Below are positions 9,714 through 62,792 of a DNA stretch of 64,000 bases, one piece after another (positions within the stretch are counted from its first letter, which is position 1; each line of letters starts with the position of its first letter). The notes under the pieces are model-generated. The model did not search any database, was not told the DNA's origin, and saw only the letters and a program-made list of their open reading frames with translations. A program made the position numbers and the translations under genes. This DNA is from Candidatus Parendomicrobium reticulitermitis (GTDB taxonomy: Bacteria; Elusimicrobiota; Endomicrobiia; Endomicrobiales; Endomicrobiaceae): the NCBI GenBank assembly GCA_031287095.1, contig JAITTG010000087.1, positions 26,023-90,022 of the forward strand, in the 5' to 3' direction.

Positions 9714-9740
9714 TTTGGGTGGTTTTGAGAATCGGCAATT

Positions 9741-9793
9741 AGCCTTCTTGCGCAACCAACACATAAAAATGGACGGACATTGTCATTCTGCGC
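9741..9793 (-). repeat. solo right-end fragment of the TIR-MITE family (see 30777, 32641, 59917)
   Basis: AGCCTTCTTGCGCAACCAACACATAAAAATGGACGGACATTGTCATTCTGCGC is the reverse complement of the conserved MITE right end. Similar solo ends at 2881-2929 and 19279-19330. Confidence 0.65.
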
Positions 9794-12332: not shown

Positions 12333-13367
12333 TTATCTGATAGAGGGCAATCTATATATATTTTGTTCTGTAAACTTCGCAATATTTCTCATAGTTTCAA
12401 CAGTCTTGACGGGGTATTTGCCGACGGCAGTCTCGGCTGACAGCATTACAAAATTTGAACCGTCTATGATAGCATTTGCCACATCGCTTACTTCCGCTCT
12501 TGTAGGAATAGGATTTTCCGTCATACTTTCAAGCATTTGAGTGGCGGTGATTACAAAGATATTTCTTGAACGACACTTTTTGATTATATATTTTTGGACG
12601 ACAGGCACAGTCCAAATGGGTATTGATATGCCCATATCGCCTCTTGCCACCATCACGCCGTCTGCGACATCAAGAATGCCGGGAAGATTGTCTATGCCGC
12701 TTCTGTCTTCTATTTTTGCCACAAGTTTGCATTTTGTATTGCCTTGCTCCCTTAAAATCTCTTGGAGAGGCAGCATATCTTGAGCGTTTCTGACAAAAGA
12801 ATTGGCTACAAAATCCACATTATGCTTTAAAGCAAAAAGCATATTGTCTCTGTCTTTTGTTTCCATAGGAGCAAAAACCAATTTTGCCTGCGGGATATTC
12901 ACGCCTTTATGGGATTTTAAAATATAGTCCATACCGACTTCCGCCGTCAATTCGTCTTTTTTAGACGAAAGGACTCTTAAATGCAAATTGCCGTCGTCTA
13001 TAAAAATGTCCATACCTTTTTTGATTGCTGTAAAAGAGTCGTTATAATCTATATAAATACGCTTATTATCGCTTGAAACTTTTTTATTTGTTAAGACTAT
13101 TTTTTGATGTTTTTTTAGGGGGATTTTATCGTTTTTAAATTTGCCCAATCTTATTCTGTGTCCTTCAAGGTCTGCAAGGACTTTGATTTTTTCTTTGCGT
13201 CCTTTGTTTAAAGCGTTTATGAGTTTGAAAGTATGCTCATATTCTTCATAAGTTCCATGCGAAAAATTTAGACGGACCACTGTCATTCCTGCTTCTGCCA
13301 TTTTCTTTAAAGTTTGCAAGGAATTGGTTGATGGACCTAAAGTGCAAACTATTCCTGTTTGTTGCAT
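12333..13367 (-). CDS. pyk: pyruvate kinase, short form lacking the C-terminal regulatory domain
   Basis: TGIVCTLGPST...MTVVRLNFSHGT...MVARGDMGISIP motifs. Only 344 aa, against roughly 470 aa for typical bacterial enzymes. Confidence 0.85.
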   Translation of the reverse strand: MQQTGIVCTLGPSTNSLQTLKKMAEAGMTVVRLNFSHGTYEEYEHTFKLINALNKGRKEKIKVLADLEGHRIRLGKFKNDKIPLKKHQKIVLTNKKVSSDNKRIYIDYNDSFTAIKKGMDIFIDDGNLHLRVLSSKKDELTAEVGMDYILKSHKGVNIPQAKLVFAPMETKDRDNMLFALKHNVDFVANSFVRNAQDMLPLQEILREQGNTKCKLVAKIEDRSGIDNLPGILDVADGVMVARGDMGISIPIWTVPVVQKYIIKKCRSRNIFVITATQMLESMTENPIPTRAEVSDVANAIIDGSNFVMLSAETAVGKYPVKTVETMRNIAKFTEQNIYRLPSIR

Positions 13368-13600
13368 GCGTATATATCTCCTTTTTTCATATTTTCCTTT
13401 CTCCCGCTTTGCGTCCCTCGCTCTCTTTTCAAGGCATACTTTTCAAAATTCCTCTCCCGTAGGAGAGAGTGTCGCGAAGCAACGGGCGAGCGCTCCCATA
13501 TCCCCTATAGTCTTGCAGGTAATAGGGGGCTATTAACAACATTAAACCATTAGGGTTTGAGTATAGCGACCGACTTTAGTATCCCTTCTCCCGTTTTTTA
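13368..13600 (-). promoter_or_regulatory. composite repeat-built leader of pyk (one 82-nt two-hairpin element at 13501-13580 plus a purine-rich proximal module)
   Basis: Collinear, module by module, with the proS leader at 21513-21802. The proximal 45 nt is nearly identical to those of proS and the HD gene. Confidence 0.6.
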
Positions 13601-13689
13601 GTATAAAAAAGAGAAAAGAATAGAGGGAGAAGACGGAAATGATTTTACAACTTTATATTCTTTTCTCTTTCCTTTTTTATCCGCTCTTT

Positions 13690-14379
13690 TTATTTAATGG
13701 GTTTTATCCAAAATTCGCCGGTTTCCGTTCTGTATAGTAGATATGAGGATTTCGGAGGTTTTATTGGGTCTTGGAAAATTTTTTTATCGGGAGCGTCTAT
13801 GTTTTCAATTTCAAAATCATCGAATTTTTTCTTTTTTATATCGTATTCAACTATTCCGATAGCGTTTTGTTTGTCGTTTTTTGCGCAAAAATAGAGTTTA
13901 TTATTGTCTTTATTGAAATAAATATAATTTTCAAACATTTGAACCATATAGTCTTTTGAAATAAGAGTTTGTTGGTCATTGTCAGATAGAATTAAAAAGT
14001 AGTCCATGCTTGAATACTTTTGATTTGTATTATTAAAAATATTGGGCTTTATGATTTCAATAAATATCCCTTTGTCTATATCAATTCTATTATTATTTCT
14101 ATCATTGCGCGGTATAACTTGATTCCAATATGAATCTAATTGCGCCTCATTTAAGACCAATCTTTTTAAAGCGTTGTTTTCATATTTATAAATTCTACGC
14201 GAAATCTGTTCATCGCCTTCATAAGTCCAAGAGGCTACAAAAAGAGCGTCATTGATAATAGCATAACCTTGAAATTGGAAATTTGGATCGGCTTCCAATA
14301 ATTGTTTAGCGCTATCTTTGCTAAAAACAAAGGCGGATATAAGGATCAGAATTAATAATGCAGATAATGTTTTTTTCAT
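13690..14379 (-). CDS. hypothetical secreted protein
   Basis: 229 aa with an N-terminal signal peptide (MKKTLSALLILILISAFVFS); no family recognised. Confidence 0.5.
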   Translation of the reverse strand: MKKTLSALLILILISAFVFSKDSAKQLLEADPNFQFQGYAIINDALFVASWTYEGDEQISRRIYKYENNALKRLVLNEAQLDSYWNQVIPRNDRNNNRIDIDKGIFIEIIKPNIFNNTNQKYSSMDYFLILSDNDQQTLISKDYMVQMFENYIYFNKDNNKLYFCAKNDKQNAIGIVEYDIKKKKFDDFEIENIDAPDKKIFQDPIKPPKSSYLLYRTETGEFWIKPIK

Positions 14380-14389
14380 TTCTTTGATT

Positions 14390-15691
14390 TTAAACTATTT
14401 TAGAGGCTTCGTCAAAAGAGAGATTTCTTGATAAAGCGGCTTTTGCTATGTCTTCATATTCGGCTTTTGATTTTTTGACGCCGTAGCCTTGCCCGGTTTT
14501 GACTTTGATTTTGCCCAGATCGCTATCTTTTTGGCTGATTTTGCGTTCCAATATATATCTTTGACATACAGTTTTACGAATTCCAAAACTCGTTGTGTGT
14601 TTTAACATAAGAGCTGCAAAAAAGTCCGCTTTATCTATGGGACATAAGCATTCAAGCAAGAAAGCAGGGCGGGTTTTCTTCATATATATAGGTATAGTGA
14701 AAACATCTAATGCGCCATTTTTTAGCAAAATCTCTGATGCAAAACCGACTGCCTCGCCTGTCATATCGTCAAGATTGCAAGATAGTTGCGCGATTTCATC
14801 ATTATCTCCATTTGCCATTTCTGAATGCTCTCCACCTTGCATCGTTCCTGAATGCCCCCCCCCTTGCGTCATTCCCGAATGTCTCTGTCGGGAATTGTTT
14901 CCCACACCATAAAAAGCTCTAATGCAATTGGCAATGTCAAAATCTTTTTTTCCCATACCATAACCGATTTTTTCTATTGTCATCTGGGGCAGAGGTTCAA
15001 AATATTGGACAAAATGTTTGAGAATCGCCGCGCCTGTCGGGGTGCAAAGTTCTCCTTTTATTTGACTGCTATAAATTGGAATGCCTTGCAAAATTAAAGC
15101 GGACGCCGGCGCAGGAACTGGCAAAATGCCGTGCGCGCAATGAACAAAACCGCTTCCAACATTTATAGGCGACGCTATTATTTCATTGCAATCCAATATT
15201 TCCATAAGCAAACATACCGCTGTAATATCTGCAATAGCGTCTTTTTGACCTATTTCGTGAAAATGTATTTGTTCAACCGGGCGGTTATGAACTTTGCTTT
15301 CTGCCTCTGCAATGATTTTGTATATGGACAAAGCATTATCTTTTGATTTTTGAGATATTGGAAATGATAATAGTATTTTTTCTATATCGGCAAATCCGCT
15401 GCCGTGATGCCCTTTATGCTTATGAGTTTCATCATGATGAGAATGATGATGTTCGGCTTCTATATCAAAATCTTTTGCTATTTCTTCTTGCCCATCTATG
15501 CTCACATTCATAAGAGTTCCGTTAATAGCGCATTTTTGAGTTTTTTGGGCTGTGATTTTTACTCCGTCAAGACCGAGAGAATTGATTTTTTGCAAAAAGC
15601 CGTCTTTATCATCTATCAATTCAAACAAAGCCGCCGTTAACATATCGCCCGCCGCGCCCATAGAGCATTGTAAATAAAGAATTTTTTTCAC
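14390..15691 (-). CDS. larC: nickel-pincer cofactor nickel insertase LarC
   Basis: N-terminal CSMGAAGDM motif, His-rich stretch EAEHHHSHHDETHKHKGHHG, LarC/DUF111 architecture, adjacent to larB. Confidence 0.85.
   Translation of the reverse strand: MKKILYLQCSMGAAGDMLTAALFELIDDKDGFLQKINSLGLDGVKITAQKTQKCAINGTLMNVSIDGQEEIAKDFDIEAEHHHSHHDETHKHKGHHGSGFADIEKILLSFPISQKSKDNALSIYKIIAEAESKVHNRPVEQIHFHEIGQKDAIADITAVCLLMEILDCNEIIASPINVGSGFVHCAHGILPVPAPASALILQGIPIYSSQIKGELCTPTGAAILKHFVQYFEPLPQMTIEKIGYGMGKKDFDIANCIRAFYGVGNNSRQRHSGMTQGGGHSGTMQGGEHSEMANGDNDEIAQLSCNLDDMTGEAVGFASEILLKNGALDVFTIPIYMKKTRPAFLLECLCPIDKADFFAALMLKHTTSFGIRKTVCQRYILERKISQKDSDLGKIKVKTGQGYGVKKSKAEYEDIAKAALSRNLSFDEASKIV
14808..14895 (+). 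repeat. hairpin-repeat insertion (GTCATTCCCGAATGTCTCTGTCGGGAAT) plus three 27-nt half-repeat units and a C9/G9 tract, all in frame inside larC
   Basis: 14868-14895 matches the intergenic copies at 30962 and 49797 almost perfectly. It is translated on the minus strand as NSRQRHSGMTQ-GGG-HSGTMQGGE-HSEMANG. Homopolymer at 14855-14863. Confidence 0.8.
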
Positions 15692-16458
15692 TTTGCGCTC
15701 TCCATTTTATTGATTAAACTCGCTATATATCCCGCGCCAAAACCATTGTCTATATTTACCACAGACACTCCATTAGCGCAAGAATTAAGCATAGAAAGCA
15801 AAGCGGAAATCCCGCCGAAATTAGCGCCATAACCTACGCTTGTAGGAACTGCTATCACAGGACAAGAAACAAGCCCGCCTATTACTGTTGCAAGAGCGCC
15901 TTCCATACCTGCAACTGCCACAATAGCGCGGGCTTTTACCAAAATATCTTGTTTTGATAAAAGTCTATGTAATCCTGCAACGCCCACATCATAAAGCCGT
16001 TCAACGCGATTCCCCAAAACTTCAGCCGTGATTGCCGCTTCTTCGCAAACTGACATATCGCTTGTGCCGCCTGAGGCTATTACTATCAACCCTTTTTGCT
16101 CTTTTTGCGCATATTTTGCAATACCGAGCGACGCTATCGGCGCGTATCTTAAATCTATATTTTGCGAGATTAAAAAATCCGCAGTTTTTTGAGAAATGCG
16201 CGTGATTAGAATATCCGTTAAACCCTTATCAAGCATATTTAAGACAATTTTTTTGATTTGTTCGTCGGTTTTATTTTTTCCATAAATCACCTCCCCTATG
16301 CCTTGCCGTAAGCCCCGATGATAATCAATATTGGCAAAACCCAAATCCTCAAAAGGCTGGACTTGGAGTTTAAGCAAAGCGTCATCGGCAGAAATTTTGC
16401 CGTCCGAGACGCTTTGTAATAATTTTAAGATTTCTTCTTTGTTATTTGATTTTGGCAT
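15688..16458 (-). CDS. larB: nickel-pincer cofactor biosynthesis protein LarB (PurE-like NaAD carboxylase/hydrolase)
   Basis: 256 aa with a C-terminal AIR-carboxylase-like fold (IVIASGGTSDMSV..., VAGMEGALATVIGG). 4-nt overlap with larC. Confidence 0.85.
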   Translation of the reverse strand: MPKSNNKEEILKLLQSVSDGKISADDALLKLQVQPFEDLGFANIDYHRGLRQGIGEVIYGKNKTDEQIKKIVLNMLDKGLTDILITRISQKTADFLISQNIDLRYAPIASLGIAKYAQKEQKGLIVIASGGTSDMSVCEEAAITAEVLGNRVERLYDVGVAGLHRLLSKQDILVKARAIVAVAGMEGALATVIGGLVSCPVIAVPTSVGYGANFGGISALLSMLNSCANGVSVVNIDNGFGAGYIASLINKMESAK

Positions 16459-16738
16459 TTGAATGTTTTGTTATGATTGCATTGATTATTTTGTATAAGA
16501 CGAAGAGTAATATTAAACCGACGATTCCTGCGCAGATATTGGACAAAGCGTTTTCTTTCATAAAAGGCATTGTATAATCGGTAAATATAGCGGTAGATTC
16601 TTCTACGCTTTGAGCAAAACCCATTTTAGCGGCTAAGAATTCTAGAGTGTCGGGCAAACCTGAAGCAAAAAGGCTTGCCAAAATAACTACCGCTATTGGA
16701 AAGGCATAAGCAAGCGCTTTTTTATTTATTTTCTTCAT
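16442..16738 (-). CDS. PDGLE-domain small membrane protein (CbiN/NikN-like partner of CbiM)
   Basis: 98 aa with two TM segments and an LPDTLE motif. Overlaps both cbiM and larB. Confidence 0.6.
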   Translation of the reverse strand: MKKINKKALAYAFPIAVVILASLFASGLPDTLEFLAAKMGFAQSVEESTAIFTDYTMPFMKENALSNICAGIVGLILLFVLYKIINAIITKHSNAKIK

Positions 16739-17414
16739 CCTGTCCTCCCATAATGTTATAAAAAACCTTTAATAAGACAATAGTGATTGCGCTTTCTAAA
16801 ACGGCAAAAACCAAATGAAGCCTCATCATATCGGAAAAAGCGCCCATAAAAGAGATTTTTCCCGACATTGACAACTCAAACAAACAAAATAAAGCCGCCA
16901 TCATCACAGAGAAAAAGCAAGCCGCGCAGACTGCCAAATAACAATTTTTTTCTTTCAACGCTTTGTATATATAATATGAGAGAAAAGAGCCTACAAAAGC
17001 CATATTCAATATATTTGCGCCAAGCGCAAGAATGCCGCCGTCTCCAAAAAAGAAAGATTGAACTATTAAGACTGAAGAAATTACTAAAACGCCCGCAAAA
17101 GGACCAACCAAAACCGCCGCAAAAACGCCGCCTATAAGATGAGCGGAAGTTGAAGATTGTATAGGTATATTAAACATCTGAAAAGCAAAAATCCAAATAG
17201 CGATAATGGCAAGTTTTTGAAAATACTGCTTTGCGCTTTTAGTAAAAGCCAAATGCCCGCCTGCAATTTTTTGACCATTGTTTCCTGCCAAAACGCCTAC
17301 CAAAACCGTTACTGCTTTTAAAACTTTACTAAAACAATATCCTAAAATACCCACTGCGCCCGCAAGCAACCCGCTTGCAAGATTACTGTTTAAAAATCCA
17401 TCTGGAATGTGCAT
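16722..17414 (-). CDS. cbiM: CbiM/NikM-type ECF substrate-capture subunit (Ni/Co uptake)
   Basis: Canonical MHIPDGFL N-terminus; polytopic membrane protein. Confidence 0.85.
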   Translation of the reverse strand: MHIPDGFLNSNLASGLLAGAVGILGYCFSKVLKAVTVLVGVLAGNNGQKIAGGHLAFTKSAKQYFQKLAIIAIWIFAFQMFNIPIQSSTSAHLIGGVFAAVLVGPFAGVLVISSVLIVQSFFFGDGGILALGANILNMAFVGSFLSYYIYKALKEKNCYLAVCAACFFSVMMAALFCLFELSMSGKISFMGAFSDMMRLHLVFAVLESAITIVLLKVFYNIMGGQDEENK

Positions 17415-17557
17415 GCTAAACCTCCATTTATTTTTTATTTACCGCTAATTCCCGCTTGTGCGTTTGACCCGCAACCTGCTTTTAAGCCGCCGCCTGCAGG
17501 TAAGACCTACAATCTCCTATATTATGCGGAGAGAGCAATGACGACAATACTTTTGCC

Positions 17558-18391
17558 TTATGCTTTATTGGCTTGTATTACATCTTTTGAAAGCGTTTCA
17601 TTCATACTTCCGCTACGATAACCCAAGATGTCCATAGTTATATAAGTAAAACCTATTTTTTTAAATTCATCATGTACTTTCTTGCGGTTTTGAAGAGCGC
17701 AAATCAGCGAAAAACCAGATTCGTCAGTCTCAATTCTTGCAAGATTATTGTGCATTCTCACTCTAACTTGTCTTATGCCCATATCCAAAAGAAATTGTTC
17801 GGCTTTGTCTATCATAGACAATTTTTCGGGCGTGATTTCTTCTCCATAGGGAAAACGAGAAGATAGGCATGCAAAAGATTGTTTATTCCAAGTGGAAAGC
17901 CCAAGTTCTTTTGAAAGAGTTCTGATTTCTTCTTTATTAAGTTGGGCAAAACGCAAAGGACTTTTGATTCCTTTTTCCGCAATAGCCTTTAAGCCGGGGC
18001 GAAAGTCGCCATTATCGTCCATATTGGAGCCTTCAAAAATATTGTCTATTTTATTTTGGACGGCTATGTCTTGGATTTTGGAAAACAATTCAGATTTGCA
18101 CAGATAACATCTATTGATAGGATTGCGGGAAAAGCCTTCTATATCTAATTCTTCGCTATCTACAATTATATGTTTGACGCCCTCTTTTTTGCAAAAAGCA
18201 ATAGTCTCATTTAATTCTCTTTGCGGAAAAGAGCAAGAACGGGCGGTGATTGCAATAGTCTTATCTCCCAAAATGTCATGGCTTACTTTTAATAAAAAAG
18301 TGGAATCCACTCCTCCGGAAAACGCCACAGCGGCATTCCCGCAAGATGATATATATTCCCGCAATTTTTGTTCTTTTTGGCTTATGTCCAT
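17558..18391 (-). CDS. larE: ATP-dependent sacrificial sulfur transferase LarE
   Basis: ORF 17558..18502. Likely start MDISQKEQKL at 18391. PP-loop AVAFSGGVDSTFLL and CYLCK motif; size (277 aa) fits LarE. Confidence 0.8.
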   Translation of the reverse strand: MDISQKEQKLREYISSCGNAAVAFSGGVDSTFLLKVSHDILGDKTIAITARSCSFPQRELNETIAFCKKEGVKHIIVDSEELDIEGFSRNPINRCYLCKSELFSKIQDIAVQNKIDNIFEGSNMDDNGDFRPGLKAIAEKGIKSPLRFAQLNKEEIRTLSKELGLSTWNKQSFACLSSRFPYGEEITPEKLSMIDKAEQFLLDMGIRQVRVRMHNNLARIETDESGFSLICALQNRKKVHDEFKKIGFTYITMDILGYRSGSMNETLSKDVIQANKA

Positions 18392-18932
18392 TTTTATTAC
18401 TTCCAATGTTTGTATATCATTAATTGACTGGCGGGATAATAGCAAAAAGCCTTGTAAAAGACAAACAAACTGCATTCTATAATTATGCCTACACAAACAC
18501 ACCTCTTGCCATCAGGCATGTTGAAGGGATTATTGCAGTGGAACGCAAAAATAGTAGAAAATTCAGCGTGATGAACGCAGTTTGCATATTAGATTCTGAC
18601 CCATAGGATGCGCAACAATTTACCCAAAAAATGAAAAAAATCCTATACTTATGTAAAAAAATAAATGATATGATATATAAATATACTATGGGCGTATAAA
18701 TATATAAATATGGGGGGTTTACGATATAATAGTTAAACATTAAATTGGACGATGTTGTAATGCAAAGGCTGGCAATATTGCCAAACTTACTGACAGGATA
18801 AAAACTTATTATGCCAAACAAGCAATTATACAGCATTTAGAAGATTTAAAAGATGGGGCAAGAGCGGAAGGAGAGATTGAAAGAATTGCCATAGGGTAAG
18901 AATAGGTTTATTCGTATGGATTATGAAAGAAA

Positions 18933-19157
18933 ATGGCTTATAGAGTTAAATTTTCGGCAATAGGACGAAAAGCATTTGCTAAATTAGACAATGCCATAAA
19001 AAGAGAAATCTCTCTTAAAAACCATGAGTCTTTTGGAAAATTGTTGCGATATGAATTTTTTGACTTATGTTGTTATCATATTGGAAGTTTTAGAGTTATC
19101 GCAAACATACAAAAAGTATTGGCAAATGCGACAAAATTTACAATTAAAACGAAATAA
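18933..19157 (+). CDS. RelE/ParE-like toxin, probably degenerate
   Basis: MAYRVKFSAIGRKAFAKLDNAIKREI... and ...YHIGSFRVIANI resemble the RelE/ParE N-terminus and the GdyRviy core, but the middle and C-terminus do not fit. The upstream antitoxin-like frame (18744-18899) has no start codon. Confidence 0.35.
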   Translation: MAYRVKFSAIGRKAFAKLDNAIKREISLKNHESFGKLLRYEFFDLCCYHIGSFRVIANIQKVLANATKFTIKTK

Positions 19158-19897
19158 CACCACATTGAATGAAACTTATGAAATTTATGAGGATGTTTTG
19201 AGAAAAACGCATTGATTATTGCGCGGGTTTCCATAAGTTTTTTGAAATTATTCTTAATAAATAAGATTTTTTCTCTTAGATCTCTTGCGCAACTAACACA
19301 TAAGAATAGATGGACACTGTGTGCCCTACAACTATGCGCAAGGTAAACTCAGTTGCAGAGCGCAGGCTCAGATCCGTCGCGGAATCCATTTAAAAGTTCG
19401 TCATTCTCGAATGTCCTTGTATGGAATCCACTTTTGCCTAAGGCTGCATGAAATGTCCCGCCCCAGCCTGCGGATATTCTAAATGCTGGTAAGTAGAACG
19501 GCAGATAGAAAAGATGGGAGAGAAAAGACAACAAAAATAAAAAACAAATCTATAGACGCGCTACGCGCGTAAAAACAGAAAAAGAGAAAAATTGAATCAA
19601 AATCCCCAAAAAACCGAACCTTGTATGGGCGAATTTCAAATCTGTCCACCGTTACAAAATGCAAAACCGAAAATTTGATGAAGTTGAAATTGAAAACACA
19701 TTGAAAAATAAATATGAAAATTGAAATCAAAAATATAAAAAATCTGAACCTTGTAGGGTGGTTTTAATACGCCGTTTTGTAAAAAGCCCAATCGTTTTGC
19801 AAAATCTTATATCACAAAAATTTGTAATCAAATTAAGAATATCTCCGACATTATCAAATTTCACAATTATTCATTTATTTGTTGCGATTTTTACAAA

Positions 19898-20251
19898 TTG
19901 ATAGAAAATGCTTCGGAGGACGATTTTATATATTGCGACCCGCCTTATATTGATAGATACAATGATTATTTTAACTCTTGGAATGAATATGATGAAAATA
20001 GGCTTTGCGTTGTTTTAAGCCAAACGAAAGCCAAATTTTTATTGTCCACTTGGCGCAGCAATAAATATAGGGAGAATGTTTACATAAAGAGTTTATGGAG
20101 CGGTTTCAATATAGACGCCAAAGAACATTTTTATCACTTGGGAGCGAGTGAAAAAAATAGAAATTCTATGACAGAGGCTCTCATTTCAAATTTTGTCAGC
20201 GATAATACTCAAAAAGATTTTTCTATTAAAAATATTCAATTGCCGTTATAA
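19898..20251 (+). pseudogene. 3' fragment of a Dam-type (D12 class) N6-adenine DNA methyltransferase
   Basis: The frame opens just before the DPPY motif ([16 protein letters not shown]). The whole N-terminal SAM-binding half is missing, and repeat debris lies upstream. Confidence 0.7.
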
Positions 20252-20340
20252 ATATAAACAACTTATGTAAAAGTTGAAATAAAATGAATAAAACATATTA
20301 TCTCCTGTTTGCATAATAGAATTTTAAATTAAAGGTATTT

Positions 20341-21426
20341 ATGAATACAAATTTATCTACTCAATCCCATTTAAATTATAGTCAAAGAGTTAATCTCGGC
20401 AGTTATTATACTAATCTTGAAATAGTTGATTTTATCTACGGGCTTTTAAAAAAGAATATCGCAAGTTTTAATGATTATTGTATTTTAGATACTTCTTGCG
20501 GGTATGGTTCTTTTTTTGGAACGGATTTGCCCAATAGAAGAATCGGCGCTGATATTGATTTGAACGCTTTAAAAGAAGCGCAAAAGAATTTTGACAGCAT
20601 TGAATTTTATCATCAAAATGGTTTGCAAAATATCAGCAGAACAAAATACGCCTTATCTCAAAAAGACAAACTTATAATAGTCGGCAACCCGCCTTATAAT
20701 GATAGAACTTCAATAATCAGGCATAGTATTAAACTTAATGATGCTGGCGCTATTGACGATGATGTAAATACAAGGGATTTAGGCATTTCCTTTATGCTTT
20801 CTTATAATAAACTTTGCGCTGATTTTGTATGCGTTTTGCACCCATTGTCATATCTAATTAAAAAATCAAATTTCTCGCTTTTAAAACCTTTTGCGAGCAA
20901 TTATCAACTTTTGGATTCCCTCATTATAAGTAGCGGAGTATTCTCGCAAACTTCAAAAACAATGTCATTTCCAATAATAATAGCGCTGTATAAAAGATGT
21001 CTTTTGGGTATGGATTATGAGTTCGTCAAACAATATGATTTCAAAACAAGTGAAAAGACAAAATTCAAATTGAAAGATTTTGATTCAATTGAACGCTATA
21101 TTGCAAAGTATCCAAACCAACAATCGGTGCGCGCGCAGGAAGCAGTTGCAAAATTTTGGACAATGAGAGATATAAATGCTTTAAAAAGAAATAGCACTTT
21201 TATTGATGAGATATGCTCAAATACTGTTTTTATTACAAAAGATAAATTTGATTATTATTGTTATGTTGACGTTTTTAAAGAATATGCCAAAAATATCCCG
21301 TATTATTTCGGCAATTGCGATGTGATGATAGACAATAAAAAATTTTTAGAATTAAGAGATTGTTTCAGATTTGAGAGCATTAAAAACAATCCTTGCTATC
21401 AAAAAAATTTGCTTTGCCATCGGTAA
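20341..21426 (+). CDS. N6-adenine DNA methyltransferase (gamma class, Eco57I/TaqI-like), no partner nuclease seen
   Basis: GSYYTNLEIVDFI, DTSCGYGSFF (motif I) and IIVGNPPYN (motif IV). Confidence 0.7.
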   Translation: MNTNLSTQSHLNYSQRVNLGSYYTNLEIVDFIYGLLKKNIASFNDYCILDTSCGYGSFFGTDLPNRRIGADIDLNALKEAQKNFDSIEFYHQNGLQNISRTKYALSQKDKLIIVGNPPYNDRTSIIRHSIKLNDAGAIDDDVNTRDLGISFMLSYNKLCADFVCVLHPLSYLIKKSNFSLLKPFASNYQLLDSLIISSGVFSQTSKTMSFPIIIALYKRCLLGMDYEFVKQYDFKTSEKTKFKLKDFDSIERYIAKYPNQQSVRAQEAVAKFWTMRDINALKRNSTFIDEICSNTVFITKDKFDYYCYVDVFKEYAKNIPYYFGNCDVMIDNKKFLELRDCFRFESIKNNPCYQKNLLCHR

Positions 21427-21512
21427 AACTACCTAAAGAAAAAATAGAGGGATATTTTAAAAATCTACTAGGAGAACATCGCGCCAATTAGAATAAAGAC
21501 ATTGCCTTGAAA

Positions 21513-21802
21513 AGGGGGTGAAGGACGCAATGCGGGAGAGGGGACGCTAAAGTCAATCGCTACCCCCAAACCCTGAAAGGATTTAATGTAGTTAATAACC
21601 CCATATTGCCTGCAAGGCTATGCGGGGACAACAGGAGCGCGTCGCGACCCTCACCCGTAGTTGCGCGACACCTTCTCCTTCTCAATAGTCCCTTTTCCTA
21701 TCATATCCTCTCATATGGGAGAGAGACTTTGAAAAGCATGCCTTGAAAAGAGGGAGAGGGTCGCGAAAGCAGGAGAGGAAAAATAAGGAAAAAGGAGATA
21801 TT
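21513..21802 (+). promoter_or_regulatory. composite repeat-built leader of proS (one 82-nt two-hairpin element at 21548-21628 plus a purine-rich proximal module at 21728-21802)
   Basis: Same module order as the pyk leader. Ends in AAAAAGGAGATATTATG. Confidence 0.6.
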
Positions 21803-23512
21803 ATGTATTTTTCAAAAATGTTTATTCCTACGCTTAAAGAGGCGCCGTCGGATGCGGATATTGTTTCGGCTAAACTTATGATTAGGGCGGGGATGATTAG
21901 GAAATTGGCGTCGGGATTATACGAGTATTTACCGCTTGGGCTTAAAAGTATTAGAAAAGTCGAACAAATAATAAGAGAAGAATTAAACGCTATCGGCGGA
22001 CAGGAAGTCAGTATGCCTTTGATTATGCCTAAGGAAATGTGGGAAGAGACTGGGCGCTGGAGCGTCTATGGCAAAGAGTTGTTTAGGCTTAAAGACAGAA
22101 AAAATGCCGAATTTTGTTTGGCGCCGACTCATGAAGAGGCTATTACAGATTTAGCCCGCAGAGAAATCCGCTCGTATAGACAATTGCCCGTGATGTTTCA
22201 TCAATTTACTGAAAAGTTTAGAGATGAAATCCGCCCGCGCTTTGGCATAATGCGCAGCCGCGAATTTCTTATGAGCGACGCTTATTCTTTTCATGCCGAC
22301 GAGGCTGATTTGGAAAGATATTATAGAGATATTTTTGCCGCCTATGAGAGAATTTGTAAAAGGTGCGGTTTTAAGTTTAGACCCGTAGAGGCGGCTTCAG
22401 GCGCAATCGGAGGCTCTTATTCTCATGAATTTATGGTTCTTGCAGATACGGGAGAAGAAGAAATTGCATGGTGTTCTTGCGGATATGGAGCAAATAGCGA
22501 GAAAGCCGAATGTTTAAAAAGAGAAATTGCAAAAGAAAATCCTCTGCCCAAAAAAGAAATAGAAACGCCCAATGCCGGGACTATTGAAGAAGTTTCAAAA
22601 TTACTAAATTCCAATGCTGAAAAATTCATTAAAACTTTAATCTATCTTGCCGATGGCAAAGCAATTGCCGTTTTAGTAAGAGGCGATGATGAAATAAATG
22701 AAATCAAACTTCAAAGCATTTTGTGCGCAAATGAAATTGTTTTAGCGGATGAGCAAACAGTTCAAAAAATCACAAATGCTCCTATAGGTTTTGCCGGTCC
22801 TATAGGTTTAAACAATATTCAAATCATCGCGGATTTAACCGTTCCGGAAATTCCCAATGCCATAACGGGCGCAAACAAAAAAGATTTTCATATAAAAAAT
22901 GTCAATTATGACAGAGATTATAAAGCCGATATAATAGCCGACATTAGAAAAGTCCGTCATGACGATATATGCCCCCGCTGCAAAAAAGAAAAATTGCAAT
23001 TTTCCCGAGGCATAGAAATCGGTCATACTTTTAAACTCGGCGTAAAATATTCAAAATCTATGAATGCCGTCTATCTTGATACAAACGGCAAAGAAAATCC
23101 CGTCGTTATGGGCTGTTACGGCATAGGCGTATCAAGAATTTTAGCCGCCACAATAGAGCAATCTCACGATGAAAACGGCATTATTTGGACTGACAATATC
23201 GCTCCTTTTGAAGTCTTAATAGTTCCGATAAATTTTGCCGACGCTAAAACAAAAGAAATAGTCAAACTGATATATAAAGAATTGACAGACAAAGGACTTG
23301 AAGTTTTGATAGACGATAGAGATGAAAGAGCGGGAGTAAAGTTTAAAGACGCGGATTTAATCGGCATTCCATACAGAATAACGATAGGCGAAAAAGCGCT
23401 CGTAAACGGCAATGTAGAATTTAAAGCCCGCCGCGATAGCAAAGAAGCCGTCAAACTTTTAAAACCTCAAGAAGCAATAGCGCAGATATTAAAAATCTAC
23501 GCTAAAAACTAA
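21803..23512 (+). CDS. proS: prolyl-tRNA synthetase (bacterial type with editing insertion)
   Basis: Start MYFSKMFIPTLKEAPSDA at 21803; the track ORF from 21743 reads through the leader. Class II motifs and the INS domain are present. Confidence 0.9.
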   Translation: MYFSKMFIPTLKEAPSDADIVSAKLMIRAGMIRKLASGLYEYLPLGLKSIRKVEQIIREELNAIGGQEVSMPLIMPKEMWEETGRWSVYGKELFRLKDRKNAEFCLAPTHEEAITDLARREIRSYRQLPVMFHQFTEKFRDEIRPRFGIMRSREFLMSDAYSFHADEADLERYYRDIFAAYERICKRCGFKFRPVEAASGAIGGSYSHEFMVLADTGEEEIAWCSCGYGANSEKAECLKREIAKENPLPKKEIETPNAGTIEEVSKLLNSNAEKFIKTLIYLADGKAIAVLVRGDDEINEIKLQSILCANEIVLADEQTVQKITNAPIGFAGPIGLNNIQIIADLTVPEIPNAITGANKKDFHIKNVNYDRDYKADIIADIRKVRHDDICPRCKKEKLQFSRGIEIGHTFKLGVKYSKSMNAVYLDTNGKENPVVMGCYGIGVSRILAATIEQSHDENGIIWTDNIAPFEVLIVPINFADAKTKEIVKLIYKELTDKGLEVLIDDRDERAGVKFKDADLIGIPYRITIGEKALVNGNVEFKARRDSKEAVKLLKPQEAIAQILKIYAKN

Positions 23513-29654: not shown

Positions 29655-29904
29655 TTCGCAATCAGAATACAAACAATTTTAAAAGAGATTGGGCGGCATT
29701 TTCGTCATTGCGGGCTTGACCCGCAATCTCTGCTATCGCATTAGTTGTCAATTGCGCGCTTTGTCGTGTTTTCAGTCTGCGCATATCGCAGCGGCGGATT
29801 TCAAACCCGCCCAAAAAGTTGTCATTCTATACCGAGTCATTTTGTCTTGTCATTGCGCGTCCTGCGGCTTCACGCAGAATGACATATCAAAAAAGGAAAT
29901 TAAA

Positions 29905-30633
29905 ATGCCCCATTTTTATGTCTTACCTCAAAATACCGTCAATGGCAGTTTTTTTATGGAAGATGAACTCGCCCACTATGTTGCCGCCGTGCGTCGTTTT
30001 AAAGTCGGCGATGAAATAAATCTTTTTGACGGTCTTGGAAAATCTTTTAAGTGCGAAATTACAAGCATTGATAAAAACCGTATCAGCGGCAAAATTTTAT
30101 CTTCTTCGTATCAAAAGTCGTCTTTTGAAATCAATTTATATACCGCTATTCCCAAAGGCGAAAGATTTGAATGGCTTATAGAAAAATGCGCGGAACTCGG
30201 CATTTCAAAAATAATCCCTATAAATACTGCAAGAAGCGTTCTCACAGAAATTTCCGAAAACAAACTTGAAAGATTTAAAAGAATATCTATTTCGGCAAGT
30301 TCTCAATGCGGGCGCGCCGACATTATGGAAATTTGCCGTCCTTTGAATTTTCAAGACGCTTGCAAAAAAACCGTTTCAGACAAAACTATAAATATCTTGC
30401 CTTGGGAAAGTGAAAATAATCTGTCTATATTACAGGTTTTAAACGGAGAAACCTTAAAAGGCGGCAATGCCGCCGCTTTTATTGGACCCGAAGGCGGTTT
30501 TGAAAATTCTGAGATAGATTTTGCAAAAAGACTCGGCTTTCATACGGTAAGCCTTGGCAAAAACATTTTAAGGGTAGAAACCGCCGCCGTCGCTACAGCG
30601 GTATTAGTAATGTCGTCATTGCGCATATCGTAG
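29905..30633 (+). CDS. rsmE: 16S rRNA m3U1498 methyltransferase RsmE
   Basis: Start MPHFYV at 29905; the track ORF from 29689 reads through repeats. PUA-like N-terminus and a IGPEGGF SPOUT motif. The C-terminal SSLRIS is encoded by a repeat. Confidence 0.8.
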   Translation: MPHFYVLPQNTVNGSFFMEDELAHYVAAVRRFKVGDEINLFDGLGKSFKCEITSIDKNRISGKILSSSYQKSSFEINLYTAIPKGERFEWLIEKCAELGISKIIPINTARSVLTEISENKLERFKRISISASSQCGRADIMEICRPLNFQDACKKTVSDKTINILPWESENNLSILQVLNGETLKGGNAAAFIGPEGGFENSEIDFAKRLGFHTVSLGKNILRVETAAVATAVLVMSSLRIS

Positions 30634-30663
30634 GGGCGGGTTTCAAACCCGCCTATCCGCACG
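30630..30663 (+). repeat. GTAG-headed REP palindrome (GTAGGGGCGGGTTTCAAACCCGCC)
   Basis: Begins at the rsmE stop codon. Palindrome GGGCGGGTTT/AAACCCGCC preceded by GTAG. Confidence 0.75.
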
Positions 30664-30776
30664 ATTGACAAAAAACAAAAAGGCAAACGGCAGGCAAATA
30701 ATGATTTGCCGCTACAAACAACATAATATCGGTTGCGCAAGGGGACTAATCTACAACAATCAAGGACAATATCAAT

Positions 30777-31176
30777 AGACCTCTTGTATAATTGATATAC
30801 AAAAAATGTAAGAATATAAGGTTGTTATTGTGGACTTGCTATTCGTTGCGGGTTTGACCTGCGCGGTATAGAAAATATAAGCCATATTCAAATTAAGCGT
30901 CAATCTCGCAACCGCGGTAAAGCCGCGCCTATCGCATCATTCTCGAATGTTGCGCCAGCGCGTCATTCCCGAATGTCTCTGTCGGGAATCCATTTTTGCC
31001 ATTGCCTTTTTTAACTTGGATTCCCGATAACAAATTTCGGGAATGACGAATAAAAGGCTTGCCCTATTTTCAAGCGGGTTGATGACAACGGTAACTCGCT
31101 GTCATTGTGCGCCCCGCGATTTCGCGCAAAATGACAATGTCCGTCTATTTTTATATGTTGGTTGCGCAAGAGGTCT
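30777..31176 (+). mobile_element. non-autonomous TIR element (MITE), ~400 bp, carrying nested hairpin repeats
   Basis: Ends AGACCTCTTGT... and ...GCAAGAGGTCT are inverted repeats. Flanked by AAT (30774-30776) and AAT (31177-31179). Interior contains GTCATTCCCGA hairpins at 30962-30991 and 31018-31047. Confidence 0.7.
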
Positions 31177-31177
31177 A

Positions 31178-32329
31178 ATGAAAAAATTTTATATCTATTC
31201 TTTCGGCTGTAAAGTCAATCGTTATGAAACAGAACTCATATCGCAAAAATTAAAAAGCGGCGATTATGAAATAGCCGATACTCCCCAAGAGGCAGACGCA
31301 ATAATTTTTAATTCTTGTTCTGTCACAAACAATGCCGACAAAGAGTGTTTATATTTAATCAGGAAATCTTTAAAACTACCTCAAAAACCGCAAATCATTC
31401 TCACAGGGTGCCTTGCAATCAATAAATTTCAAGAGTTAAAAAAACTCTTTCCATCTATTGAAGTAATATCAGACAAAAAAACTTTATATTTACAGCCTGA
31501 CAATCAAAGCATAATCTCTTTTGAAAATCATCATCGCGCTTTTATCAAAATCCAAGACGGCTGCAATAGTTTCTGCTCATATTGCATAGTTCCTTATATA
31601 AGAAGCCAAATGTGGAGCAAGCAGCCGGAGGCTGTTCTTTCAGAAATAGAAAATCTCGTCAAAAACGGATACAGCGAAATAGTTTTGACAGGCATACACA
31701 TCGGCAAATACGAAGGCGGTATAGCCCCGCTGATAGAAAAAATAGTCAAAATCCCGTTGGATTTTAGAATCCGCATATCGTCCATAGAAATCAATGAAAT
31801 TAATGACTATCTATTGTCTTTGATGAAAGATTATGAAAACAAAATATGCTCTCACCTACACATACCATTACAATCAGGCAGCGGCGGTATTTTAAAATTG
31901 ATGAACAGACAATACGCAAGCGCCGTCTTTGAAAACAAAATCCAAAAAATTGCCGCTATGTTTAAAAACATAGCCATAACAACAGATATCATAGCTGGTT
32001 TTCCAAGCGAGACAAATGCTCAACACAAAGAAACTTGCGACTTTATAAAAAGAAATCCATTTTCAAGGCTGCACATTTTTAGATATTCAGACAGAAGCGG
32101 CGCAAAAGCCTCAAATTTCAAAAACAAAGTCCCGCCTCAAGAAATCAAAGCCCGTTCCAAAGAACTATTAGGAATAGACAAATCAAAAAGAAAAGACTTT
32201 TTAACGGCAAATACAGGCTCAACAAGAAAAGCAGTCAGCATATCTCCCAATGCATCTCTAACAGACAATTACATAACCATTTCAAACGCCGCATATCAAA
32301 AAGGCATTTTTGATATTAAAATAGAATAG
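31178..32329 (+). CDS. mtaB: radical-SAM methylthiotransferase, MtaB/MiaB-like
   Basis: Start MKKFYIYSFGCKVNRYE at 31178; the track ORF from 31043 reads through the MITE. UPF0004 domain and a CNSFCSYC rSAM cluster. Confidence 0.8.
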   Translation: MKKFYIYSFGCKVNRYETELISQKLKSGDYEIADTPQEADAIIFNSCSVTNNADKECLYLIRKSLKLPQKPQIILTGCLAINKFQELKKLFPSIEVISDKKTLYLQPDNQSIISFENHHRAFIKIQDGCNSFCSYCIVPYIRSQMWSKQPEAVLSEIENLVKNGYSEIVLTGIHIGKYEGGIAPLIEKIVKIPLDFRIRISSIEINEINDYLLSLMKDYENKICSHLHIPLQSGSGGILKLMNRQYASAVFENKIQKIAAMFKNIAITTDIIAGFPSETNAQHKETCDFIKRNPFSRLHIFRYSDRSGAKASNFKNKVPPQEIKARSKELLGIDKSKRKDFLTANTGSTRKAVSISPNASLTDNYITISNAAYQKGIFDIKIE

Positions 32330-32476: not shown

Positions 32477-32640
32477 AATTAGATGATTAAATGCGAGGTT
32501 TCTTAAAAGCGGACAGAAACAAAAACCGGACGAGAAATCGTCTTAAAATTAAATAAAACCATCCACAAATAAGGATAATTGCGGGTAGTTTTTATGTTTT
32601 ATAAGCAAATAGCAAGCAAACAATTGAATATAGATGCAAT

Positions 32641-32799
32641 GGACCTCTTGCATAACTGATATACAAAAAATGTAAGAATATAAGATTGCCGTTGTGCGCT
32701 AACAGAACTCATCAGTGCGAAAACAAGATTGTCATTCTGCGCGAAGCCGTAGAATGACACTATCCCTCTATTTTTATGTGTTGGTTGCGCAAGAGATCT
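32641..32799 (+). mobile_element. non-autonomous TIR element (MITE), minimal 159-bp copy
   Basis: GGACCTCTTGC...GCAAGAGATCT termini. AAT at 32638-32640 and at 32800-32802. Internal GTCATTCTGCG/CGTAGAATGAC hairpin. Confidence 0.7.
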
Positions 32800-32806
32800 A
32801 ATGGAT

Positions 32807-32858
32807 AAAAAACCGCGCAGGCTAAAAGCGTAATGCTTTTGGTTTGCGCGGTTTTTTT
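32807..32858 (+). terminator. compound stem-loop with flanking A/T runs
   Basis: AAAAACCGCGCA...TGCGCGGTTTTTTT with an inner AAAAGC-GTAAT-GCTTTT hairpin. Confidence 0.5.
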
Positions 32859-36601: not shown

Positions 36602-36618
36602 ACCGTCGTAAAGAAAAC

Positions 36619-36948
36619 TAAAGTCAATCGCCACAATCAAACCCTGAAAGGGTTTAATGAAGTTAATAACCCCGTATTGCCTGCAAGGCTATGCGGGGGC
36701 GATAAAGTCAATCGCAACAATCAAACACTGAAAGGGTTTAATGCAGTTAATAACCCCGTATTGCCACAGGCTATGCGGGGACGATAAAGTCAATCGCCAC
36801 AACCAAACCCTGAAAGGGTTTAATGCAGTTAATAACCCCGTATTGCCGCAGGCTATGCGGGGACGATAAAGTCAATCGCCGCACCCAAACCCTGAAAGGG
36901 TTTAATGTAGTTAATAACCCCGTATTGCCTGCAAAGGCTATGCGGGGA
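36619..36948 (+). repeat. four tandem copies of the 82-nt two-hairpin leader element
   Basis: Copies at 36619-36702, 36703-36784, 36785-36866 and 36867-36948. Stems conserved, linker and loop variable. Ends 15 nt before the rSAM ATG. Confidence 0.9.
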
Positions 36949-36963
36949 CACAAGGAAACCAAA

Positions 36964-47081: not shown

Positions 47082-48221
47082 ATGCAAATAGGAGATTGGC
47101 AGTTTTTAAAAAAATCTTCCGAGTGCCGCGCAAGATTGGGGAAAGTTTTTACTTTGCGCGGTATTATTGATACGCCCGCTTTTATGCCTGTGGGAACGCA
47201 AGGCAGCGTTAAGGGCGTGCCTATGGAATTTTTAAAGAATTCTAAAGCGCAGATTATTCTTGCTAATTCTTATCACTTATATTTGCGTCCGGGAACTGAA
47301 ATTGTCAAAAATGCCGGCGGCATACAAAAATTTAATTCTTGGGATAAACCTATGCTTACCGATTCCGGCGGGTTTCAAATTTTTAGTTTAAACGATATTA
47401 GGAAAATCAAAGACGACGGAGTAGAATTCAAATCCCATATAGACGGCTCAACTCACTTTTTTTCTCCCGAAAAATCTATGCAAATTCAAAAAGATATAGG
47501 CGCGGATATTATCATGGCTTTTGACGATTGCACTCCTTATCCCGCCGATTATGACTATGCAAAAAAGTCTATGGAATTAAGCCTCAAATGGGCGGCAAGA
47601 TGTAAAGAAGAATTTTATAAAGACGATTCTTGCGATAGGCAGGCGCTTTTTGGAATTGTGCAAGGCTCTGTTTATGATGATTTACGCAAAATCAGCGCTG
47701 AATCTATGCAGGAAATTGATTTTGTAGGCTATGCCATAGGCGGTCTTTCCGTAGGCGAGCCGAAAGAGGATATGCGCAGAATTTTAGATAATATATGTCC
47801 AATTTTGCCTGATAATAAAGCGCGCTATCTTATGGGCGTTGGTATGCCTGAGGATTTATGGGAATGCGTTGAGCGGGGAATAGATATGTTTGATTGCGTA
47901 ATCCCGACGAGAAATGGGCGCAATGGACAGGTTTTTACAAGTCAAGGCAAAATCAATATAAGAAATGCCCAATATAGACAAGACTTTACCGCTCTTGACC
48001 CAGACTGCGATTGTCCCGCCTGCAAAGGATATACAAAAGCATATCTCAATCATTTAGTCCGCGCCCAAGAAACTTTATATCTCGCTCTTTTATCCGTCCA
48101 CAATATATATTTTATGCTAAATCTAATGGAAAAAATAAGGCAATCCCTTGCTAACGACGCATTCTTTGAAGCCAAAACAAATTTTTTCAAAAATTATTAT
48201 AAGTCGTCATTACAAGTTTGA
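47082..48221 (+). CDS. tgt: queuine tRNA-ribosyltransferase
   Basis: TPAFMPVGTQGSVKG, LTDSGGFQ and a CDCPAC zinc motif. The C-terminal SSLQV-stop is encoded by a repeat. Confidence 0.95.
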   Translation: MQIGDWQFLKKSSECRARLGKVFTLRGIIDTPAFMPVGTQGSVKGVPMEFLKNSKAQIILANSYHLYLRPGTEIVKNAGGIQKFNSWDKPMLTDSGGFQIFSLNDIRKIKDDGVEFKSHIDGSTHFFSPEKSMQIQKDIGADIIMAFDDCTPYPADYDYAKKSMELSLKWAARCKEEFYKDDSCDRQALFGIVQGSVYDDLRKISAESMQEIDFVGYAIGGLSVGEPKEDMRRILDNICPILPDNKARYLMGVGMPEDLWECVERGIDMFDCVIPTRNGRNGQVFTSQGKINIRNAQYRQDFTALDPDCDCPACKGYTKAYLNHLVRAQETLYLALLSVHNIYFMLNLMEKIRQSLANDAFFEAKTNFFKNYYKSSLQV

Positions 48222-48342
48222 CCCGCAATATTCCCGCGAAGCGTTTTGAGGCAAACAATAACGGAGATTGCGGGGCAAGACAGCAGGCGGCGGAAGGTAA
48301 AAACGGATTTTTAGGCAGCCTCGTTTATCACAAGGAATTATT

Positions 48343-49716: not shown

Positions 49717-49796
49717 CACATAAAGAATTGCCGTAAAATATAGCGAGCGCTTCATGACAAACCTGAATTCACATTCCCAAATGCCGCGCCTGCTGC

Positions 49797-49826
49797 GTCA
49801 TTCCCGAATGTCTCTGTCGGGAATCC
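49797..49826 (+). repeat. hairpin repeat GTCATTCCCGA-ATGTCTCTG-TCGGGAATCC
   Basis: Identical to 30962-30991 and nearly identical to 14868-14895 inside larC. Degenerate copies at 19399 and 59990-60060. Confidence 0.8.
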
Positions 49827-50130: not shown

Positions 50131-50234
50131 AAAGGAAAACAGACATATGATAGACCCCTCGCCCGTCTGACTTTGCAGACGCCCTCTCCCCCAAGGGGCG
50201 AGGGGAAAGAGGAAATAAGGAAATAAAGGAAAAA

Positions 50235-54165: not shown

Positions 54166-54195
54166 GTAGGGGCAGACCCATGTGTCTGCCCCTAG
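54166..54195 (+). repeat. GTAG-headed REP palindrome GTAGGGGCAGAC-CCATGT-GTCTGCCCCTAG
   Basis: Perfect 9-bp arms. Inverted copy at 62748-62775; stem variants at 38835, 39680 and 55516. Confidence 0.8.
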
Positions 54196-59848: not shown

Positions 59849-59916
59849 GGAAACGCGAATTAATTTATTGAATGCCTTTAGCCATGCGCAATGACGAGTT
59901 AACTATATTTGATAAT

Positions 59917-60128: not shown

Positions 60129-60153
60129 AATTAGCGTTTCCATAAGTTTTGCG

Positions 60154-60649: not shown

Positions 60650-60665
60650 TTGTATCTCCTTGTGT

Positions 60666-62745: not shown

Positions 62746-62792
62746 TTGCGGGCAGACACATGGGTCTGCCCCTACAAATCAATCAGCGTCTT

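Follow-up and report, generated by a model that had tools for sequence, protein, structure and literature searches.

The question raised by this locus is why pyk, coding for a glycolytic enzyme, and proS, coding for a tRNA synthetase, carry leaders of the same build. Both genes lie in a 64-kb stretch of contig JAITTG010000087.1 of Candidatus Parendomicrobium reticulitermitis, called the window below, and all repeat counts given for the window cover these 64 kb. pyk is located at 12333–13367 on the minus strand (protein MDR3049533.1; NCBIfam equivalog TIGR01064, E 5e-132) and proS at 21803–23512 on the plus strand (MDR3049543.1; NCBIfam equivalog NF006625, E 1e-235). An earlier note, made from the DNA letters alone, had described a composite leader of about 230–290 nucleotides (nt) shared by both genes and containing an 82-nt element, and had read it as a mobile or recombining 5' untranslated region (5' UTR) and promoter cassette or as the target of one regulator. 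The shared leader, the module order and the 82-nt element were confirmed, while a compensatory change claimed for the pyk copy proved only partly right; of the interpretation, the mobile cassette found support and the promoter cassette did not. We consider it probable (roughly 0.6) that the leader common to the two genes is composed of repeat modules specific to this lineage and is present as a duplicated or recombined block, rather than being a regulatory leader of ancestral origin. Control of both genes by one regulator is less likely. Our best-supported conclusion concerns the 82-nt unit, which represents a new family of start-proximal, co-oriented and structured repeats, interspersed or in tandem, in some Endomicrobium-like genomes.

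Local alignment of the whole intergenic regions upstream of pyk and proS yielded a score of 176 compared to 19.9 ± 2.6 for shuffled sequences (z about 61). The alignment spans about 270 nt and is colinear, which bears out the common module order that had been proposed. In gene orientation both leaders show, in this order, a GA-rich CGGGAGARGGGAY, the 82-nt element, GGAGCGC..GCGCGACAC, a CUCUCC/GGAGAG hairpin, TTTGAAAAGYATGCCTTGAAAAGAG..CGC..AAAGCRGGAGA, a purine-rich AAAAAGGAGATAT and the ATG. Each of these module patterns far exceeds its shuffle expectation. Taken together, the alignment and the module statistics indicate that the similarity of the leaders is real and far beyond chance. One might suspect a fortuitous likeness of purine-rich, low-complexity sequences close to the Shine-Dalgarno (SD) sequence, since SD sequences of this lineage commonly have GA-rich, A-rich surroundings such as AAAAAGGAGATA and another GA-rich leader is found at 50206–50242, but a colinear alignment of this length and module patterns so far above shuffles refute this explanation and leave it a negligible probability.

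On the minus strand the pyk composite occupies 13368–13594 and adjoins the ATG at 13367. It begins with a GA-rich remnant (ACGGGAGAAGGGAT, 13581–13594) located directly 5' of the 82-nt element, which we call module B (13499–13580). Next comes module C (GGGAGCGC...CGCGACAC, 13469–13497). This is followed by module D (13451–13468), a short CUCUCC/GGAGAG hairpin with a predicted 7-bp stem, by a proximal module A (TTTTGAAAAGTATGCCTTGAAAAGAG...CGCAAAGCGGGAGAAAGGA, 13395–13448) and by a purine-rich tract including the SD (AAAATATGAAAAAAGGAGATAT, 13371–13394). The remnant corresponds to the last 13–14 nt of module A and is all that is left of a distal module A at pyk. The proS composite (21500–21802, plus strand) adjoins the ATG at 21803 and is arranged as A(distal)-B-C-D-A(proximal)-SD. 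Its distal module A at 21500–21545 forms a direct repeat with the proximal one at 21728–21779; module B follows at 21546–21629, module C (GGAGCGCG...GCGCGACAC) at 21634–21672, module D at 21673–21726, and the proximal module A with the purine-rich tract and SD at 21728–21799. In addition to a CCUCUC/GGGAGAG hairpin, module D of proS contains a CU-rich insertion of 35 nt in comparison to pyk. The GA-rich module A (TGCCTTGAAAAGRG...GCGGGAGAGG) is therefore present twice at proS, as a 42-nt direct repeat (21503–21544 and 21739–21780) around B-C-D, a feature absent from the earlier note.

We then determined the number of 82-nt elements with a covariance model built from 13 copies. The element is real: exactly ten copies were detected in the window, distributed over five loci and scoring 75–106 bits, with the next-best match at 25 bits. 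The same ten copies emerged from a repeat search, Tandem Repeats Finder and a pattern search. All ten are located on the strand of the downstream gene. Single copies precede pyk and proS. Four tandem copies (36617–36949, plus strand; 98–106 bits; Tandem Repeats Finder period 82 × 4.0 with 92% matches) lie ahead of a radical SAM/SPASM gene, whose ATG at 36964 is 16 nt from the end of the array, and three tandem copies (60664–60908, minus strand) likewise stop 16 nt short of the ATG of a DUF1844 gene at 60649. Upstream of gltX a single copy (62615–62698, minus strand; 84.5 bits) ends 14 nt before the ATG at 62600 and is accompanied by a possible degenerate partial copy (62699–62762; 10.7 bits, E 1.4). 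Upstream of the radical-SAM, DUF1844 and gltX genes the distance from the last unit to the start codon is 14–16 nt, and the sequence there, GCGGGGA(A/C)(A)CAAGGAG, leads directly into the SD. Only at pyk and proS is the unit set off from the ATG, by 134 and 175 nt, respectively, which are taken up by the C-D-A part. As the unit lies immediately 5' of the SD and start codon in gene orientation, it is presumably transcribed as 5' UTR and would be carried on the mRNA.

The copies differ considerably in their degree of conservation. Pairwise identity of the tandem copies in the two arrays ranges from 71 to 95%. The pyk copy is the most diverged with 58–76% identity to the others and has the lowest model score (75.3 bits, E 1e-16). 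For the proS copy (99.6 bits) the nearest relative is the fourth, gene-proximal copy of the radical-SAM array with 92% identity, compared to only 76% for the pyk copy. In the third radical-SAM copy an ATG in the linker between the two hairpins (36823) is in frame with the gene, so that an open reading frame (ORF) of 402 amino acids is called; this is a likely source of mis-annotated starts. Both tandem arrays are also candidates for copy-number variation and assembly breaks.

Outside the window, we searched one genome per species from 185,579 species for an exact 20-nt core pattern. True copies were found only in the metagenome-assembled genome (MAG) Endomicrobium sp. Hs463_bin78, which contains four full copies and one partial copy on three contig regions (two in L005, one in L006, one plus the partial in L007). 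The other 20 of the 23 scan loci are single chance matches in unrelated taxa with at most 25 bits compared to 75–106 bits for true copies. Every element in Hs463_bin78 is located just before an SD, with the ATG 14–17 nt downstream at three loci; in L006 the downstream gene lies beyond the contig end. Considering both genomes, the element is co-oriented with the downstream gene at 8/8 loci with a visible gene, which would be expected with a probability of about 0.004 if orientation were random, and in six of these eight the element or array ends 14–17 nt before the ATG. The carriers in the two genomes are pyk, proS, gltX, DUF1844 and radical-SAM genes and a LUD-domain gene, and BLASTP shows no homology between the radical-SAM genes that follow the element in the window and those that follow it in the MAG. 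Both L005 copies and the L007 copy follow a GA-rich (GGAAAGA)n tract that resembles CGGGAGARGGGAY of the pyk and proS leaders. The strict core pattern gave no match in JGI metagenome contigs and none in viral contigs. When the window was compared with Rfam 15 at the gathering threshold only two tRNAs were reported, and permissive Rfam scans, made for the radical-SAM array and for the proS leader, remained at chance level (at most 19 bits, E at least 0.7).

One of the MAG loci deserves a separate remark. In L005 (2429–2560) the gene behind the element starts with MEIKKKILVGGG and is interrupted at a run of seven G; a shift of 1 nt would join this start to a radical-SAM ORF of 340 amino acids. 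Either a mistake in the assembly or a phase-variable homopolymer could account for the interruption.

Folding of the element into two hairpins is supported by RNAalifold and by explicit counting of pairs, hairpin 1 with the sequence AAACCCU-GAA-AGGGUUU and hairpin 2 with CCCCGUAUUGCC-(U)GCA(A)-GGCUAUGCGGGG. The linker between them, UUUAAUGNNGUUAAUAA, is conserved, single-stranded and nearly invariant across the two species. Together the hairpins comprise 18 pairs, and 92.7% of the 234 cells are paired, compared to 26–51% when the partners are slid by 1–3 columns. Changes on both sides were observed in five pairs, with 1.4 expected from shuffles, none of 500 of which reached five. In hairpin 1 the copies of the Endomicrobium MAG show C-G to U-A and U-A to C-G exchanges, and the gltX copy shows C-G to U-A in both hairpins. 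Canonical copies fold with z between -2.7 and -5.2, whereas the copies of pyk, proS and gltX fold at the level of shuffled sequences (z -0.57, -1.23 and -0.26). No conserved ORF is present in the unit: its only ATG, located in the linker, reads ATG-TAG in four copies and other frames elsewhere, and there is no conserved frame leading from the unit to an end at the gene start.

A double compensatory change had been claimed for hairpin 2 of the pyk copy. A 7-bp CCCCUAU/AUAGGGG stem can indeed be drawn, but only in a shifted register. In comparison to the canonical copy the actual differences are a G to C exchange in the 5' arm, and a 1-nt deletion together with a G to A exchange in the 3' arm. 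The apical GCC/GGC helix is disrupted by A.C and C.A, and the minimum-free-energy fold of the pyk copy differs from the canonical fold with two hairpins. This change is decay of a repeat copy and is not good evidence of selection on structure.

Several of these results would also fit a dedicated cis-regulatory RNA. One trans-acting RNA-binding protein or RNase would then have as its operator either the 82-nt unit or the GA-rich tracts, in which GGA motifs recur, and the carriers would form one post-transcriptional regulon. Orientation and start-proximal placement are strict, the stems covary while the linker is almost invariant in two species, and two of the carriers are aminoacyl-tRNA synthetases. 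However, copy number varies from one to four with tandem copies 87–95% identical, the carrier genes are unrelated in function, the pyk, proS and gltX copies are degraded in structure (z about -0.3 to -1.2), no known RNA family was matched, and the element is absent at orthologous loci even where the proteins are 92–95% identical. We therefore judge such a regulon unlikely.

The orthologous loci also bear on the age of the leader. The closest homologues belong to Endomicrobium or Endomicrobiia throughout. In a close relative represented by JGI sample 3300042601 Pyk is 95% and GltX 92% identical to the proteins of the window. Its pyk (L050) has neither the element nor the composite, and the upstream similarity stops at the SD AAAAAGGAGATA. 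gltX and DUF1844 of the same relative (L053) have short leaders with other small repeats, and the 82-nt element is missing. Element and composite are likewise missing at two further pyk loci (L051 and L052) and at proS of more distant relatives with 76–78% identity (L024, L025/L026 and L027). The multi-copy nature of the 82-nt module and its absence from orthologous pyk, gltX, DUF1844 and three proS loci support the mobile or recombining 5' UTR cassette of the earlier note, and absence at all four comparable loci identifies element and composite as a lineage-specific gain. A riboswitch or T-box would be expected to show a leader kept at orthologous loci, which is found for none of pyk, proS, gltX and DUF1844. 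It would also be expected to have an expression platform coupled to the sensor, either a terminator/antiterminator or a helix that sequesters the SD. Neither the pyk nor the proS leader contained a terminator-like site, and both fold at shuffle level.

We compared the divergence of the two leaders with that of pyk itself. At four-fold degenerate sites the pyk genes of the window and the close relative share 62% identity (38% raw divergence), while the two leader copies are about 78–85% identical in aligned modules (about 15–22% different). The lower divergence of the leaders fits a duplication after the split of the two lineages if the leader copies evolve neutrally.

On the chromosome the two leaders are inverted repeats 8.1–8.2 kb apart. 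The longer pair of arms, I4 (13374–13467 and 21708–21801), comprises 94 nt with 78% identity and includes the proximal modules A; I20 (13395–13436 and 21503–21544) comprises 42 nt with 83% identity and pairs the proximal module A of pyk with the distal one of proS. The leaders could be by-products of a chromosomal rearrangement. They would then be inverted repeats that were left at the ends of a segment of about 8 kb (13.7–21.4 kb), inverted or inserted, or that gave rise to these ends, and would have no role as leaders. Besides the inverted arrangement and spacing, it is in favour of this explanation that the copies flank a larC/larB/cbiM/larE-like block with restriction-modification remnants and that both genes are located at synteny breakpoints. 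The order common to the relatives L024 and L025/L026 is greA then proS, with a gap of 8 nt in L025/L026 and one methyltransferase gene between them in L024, whereas proS of the window follows the restriction-modification remnants. The gene further upstream of pyk is different in each relative examined. On the other hand, at both genes the shared block stops precisely at the SD and ATG, a further copy of its proximal module precedes a third gene that lies outside any such segment, the 82-nt module is equally start-proximal at loci outside it, and a divergence of about 22% speaks against a recent inversion. A mere by-product of rearrangement is accordingly improbable.

The segment between the inverted leaders (13690–21426) codes for a LarC-like nickel insertion protein, a LarB-like AIR carboxylase, PDGLE and CbiM transport components and a PP-loop (LarE-like) protein. 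It also contains DNA methyltransferase fragments, namely a D12 fragment of 117 amino acids and an Eco57I-like protein of 361 amino acids. A methyltransferase gene is found just upstream of proS in the relative L024 as well, which suggests that the site may be a hot spot for restriction-modification genes.

A further possibility is that the repeats act as a portable promoter and give initiation signals to genes that lost their promoter in a rearrangement. proS is indeed separated from the greA operon that relatives keep, and one tandem junction reads TTGCCA-18-TAAAGT, matching 9/12 consensus positions. This single match is at chance level (one found, shuffle mean 0.6), the copies in the Endomicrobium MAG have no -35-like hexamer at the matching place, and no sigma-70-like site was detected in the pyk leader, the proS leader or the DUF1844 array. 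The promoter part of the earlier interpretation is thereby not supported, and we regard a promoter cassette as very unlikely. Intrinsic terminators were not found in the pyk or proS leader either, and neither leader as a whole folds better than shuffled sequences (z 0.05 for pyk and -1.57 for proS).

We also assessed modules A, C and D by sensitive BLAST in the window and all related loci. Full copies are restricted to pyk and proS. The exception is the proximal part of about 38 nt (AAAGCGGGAGARRGGAAAATAW.AAAAAAGGAGA), not described in the earlier note, which recurs on the minus strand at 1658–1696 (AAAGCGGGAGAGGGGAAATATAAAAAACGGAGAATA) directly before the ATG at 1657 of an HD-domain gene (467–1657). 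Its local alignment scores are 42 to the pyk leader and 41 to the proS leader compared to about 17 ± 2.5 for shuffles (z about 10). A pattern for module A had 22 metagenome matches, mostly in an unrelated protein-coding gene with the motif CLEKGEKGG, and none of them extends into the rest of the module. Two other origins were considered and rejected. Module A or C-D-A could represent diverged 82-nt units of a heterogeneous tandem array, but alignments to the consensus of B gave z between -0.7 and 1.1. A leader peptide or pseudogene remnant in C-D-A is contradicted by the 35-nt indel between the two copies, which breaks the frame. There is no conserved ORF in the composite leader.

Among known small repeats, mycobacterial interspersed repetitive units (MIRUs) resemble the 82-nt family in placement. 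They have been described as mobile and as inserting at start codons with downstream expression preserved (PMC12548453). Like MIRUs, the 82-nt units are short direct-repeat units of tens of nt, single or in tandem, intergenic and oriented with the flanking genes; the figures are one to four copies, co-direction at 8/8 loci and a distance of 14–17 nt to the ATG at 6/8. Unlike the 82-nt unit, MIRUs contain a short ORF whose translation is coupled to that of the gene downstream by a -4 overlap, and no internal ORF with overlapping stop and start was found here. The 82-nt unit instead abuts or supplies the SD and folds into two covarying hairpins. It shows no sequence similarity to MIRUs, and the phylum differs.

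BOX elements of pneumococci, with the structure boxA-boxB(n)-boxC, lie between genes, have a predicted fold in the transcribed form and are thought to influence co-transcribed genes (PMC3049150). A similar modular build with one module in variable tandem number is apparent in the window: the modules A, B, C and D follow one another colinearly at both pyk and proS in the order A-B-C-D-A, and B alone occurs in arrays of one, three and four within a range of 1–4. BOX elements differ in having complementary terminal modules and in resembling MITEs (miniature inverted-repeat transposable elements), while our composite has no terminal inverted repeat and folds at shuffle level. They also show no strict start-codon adjacency or orientation rule and no evident sequence relationship. 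Many dispersed composites, as for BOX, were not observed either, the full composite being present twice in the window and in no relative. REP/BIME, ERIC and Correia-type repeats are multi-copy, structured, intergenic and co-transcribed and can alter stability or processing of mRNA (PMC3049150). The 82-nt family shares with them its nature as a multi-copy structured intergenic repeat. These repeats, however, are palindromic or bounded by terminal inverted repeats and often located 3' of genes or between convergent genes in both orientations, whereas the 82-nt family is asymmetric, strictly 5' of genes and co-oriented. Without a coupled ORF it is not a MIRU, and without complementary termini it is neither BOX-like nor a MITE; we therefore place it as a new family within the small bacterial intergenic repeats.

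Some observations weigh against a composite built from mobile repeats. An invariant unpaired linker together with covarying stems is what one expects of a functional RNA and not of a purely selfish repeat. Marks of a MITE are missing, as the unit ends ACTAAAGTC... and ...GCGGGGAC are non-complementary and form no terminal inverted repeat, and no consistent target-site duplication flanks the element at the five window and four MAG loci. The 42-nt module A that flanks B-C-D at proS is far too long for a target duplication made by a transposase. No mobility machinery or link to a transposase was identified for the element. The status of A, C and D as repeats is based on only three copies of A and one partial copy at the HD-domain gene, with no further full copies of A, C or D in the window or in relatives.

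The composite of repeat modules probably came to be shared as follows. As a unit, the colinear block of about 230–290 nt was either copied from one of the two loci to the other or passed between pyk and proS by recombination. This would postdate the split of the lineage from its closest sampled relative. Afterwards the copies would have decayed, and the 82-nt copy of proS was perhaps homogenised with other copies by gene conversion. The intact unit may serve as a generic expression module rather than as a gene-specific sensor. Its stable hairpin right before the SD possibly forms a protective 5' end after cleavage by an RNase in the AU-rich linker, and insertions would persist by bringing or preserving a functional SD. 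The hairpin 5' of the SD, the AU-rich linker between the hairpins and the retained SD suggest a generic module for 5' UTR stabilisation or translation. At minimum, they suggest that insertion is tolerated for leaving the ribosome-binding site intact, as has also been proposed for the MIRUs inserting at start codons (PMC12548453). It is a rather doubtful further step to regard the 82-nt unit as a mobile cis-acting RNA operator, whose two hairpins would present the linker UUUAAUGNNGUUAAUAA to a trans-acting protein or RNase and which would insert at the junction of SD and start codon.

Further features of the window were noted. Pyk comprises 344 amino acids and lacks the usual C-terminal domain, with the model matched at positions 2–338 of 476. 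Such a short Pyk is normal in this clade, as nearly all homologues listed have 313–371 amino acids. The conserved downstream neighbours of pyk are a protein of about 191 amino acids of unknown family and a ZIP transporter. Between the pyk composite and the upstream gene (13605–13675, minus strand) we found a perfect inverted repeat of 15 nt, GGAAAGAGAAAAGAA / TTCTTTTCTCTTTCC-like (13608–13622 and 13656–13670), GA-rich and then CU-rich, with a run of T after it. This repeat may act as an AU-rich terminator for the upstream gene, and its GA-rich arm resembles the (GGAAAGA)n tract before the element in the Endomicrobium MAG. The GA-rich leader at 50206–50242 consists of a purine-rich repeat, (AAAAAGGA)x4.5, directly upstream of an ATG and contains multiple SD-like motifs.

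The genome is unusually rich in repeats. Other short palindromic intergenic families in the window are GCGTCATTCCCGAATGTCTCTGTCGGGAATCC, GGGCGGGTTTCAAACCCGCCC, TCGTCATTGCGGGCTTGACCCGCAAT and GGGCAGACCCATGTGTCTGCCCC with 4–8 copies each; examples are located at 14845–14895, 30939–30989 and 49774–49824, at 2840–2877 and 30627–30664, at 29702–29727 and 48204–48229, and at 54170–54194 and 62750–62774. Variants of two of these families are also present in the close relative (L053:70–100 and 1670–1695). A longer repeated block with CAATAGACCTCTTGTATAATTGATATACAAAAAATGTAAGAATATAAGG and TTTTATATGTTGGTTGCGCAAGAGGTCTAAT occurs in at least five places and in both orientations (30731–31188, 32637–32811, 59913–60140, 9729–9793 and 19267–19324), possibly representing a further mobile element or its ends.

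If the 82-nt unit did act as an operator, its spread would wire pyk, proS, gltX, DUF1844 and radical-SAM genes into a common circuit of post-transcriptional control or mRNA stabilisation. The pyk/proS composite would then be an elaborated version of the unit, and the whole would exemplify how a mobile RNA element assembles a regulon. On the reading we prefer, a composite of lineage-specific repeat modules, the likeness of the pyk and proS leaders reflects repeat-driven turnover of 5' UTRs and not co-regulation, which calls for caution against over-reading shared leaders in MAGs. The 82-nt unit adds a previously undescribed structured repeat family to the Endomicrobium-like bacteria of the termite gut. 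Elements of this kind can rewrite ribosome-binding regions, break metagenome assemblies and create tandem arrays of variable number, and they may supply their hosts with portable modules of 5' stabiliser and SD.

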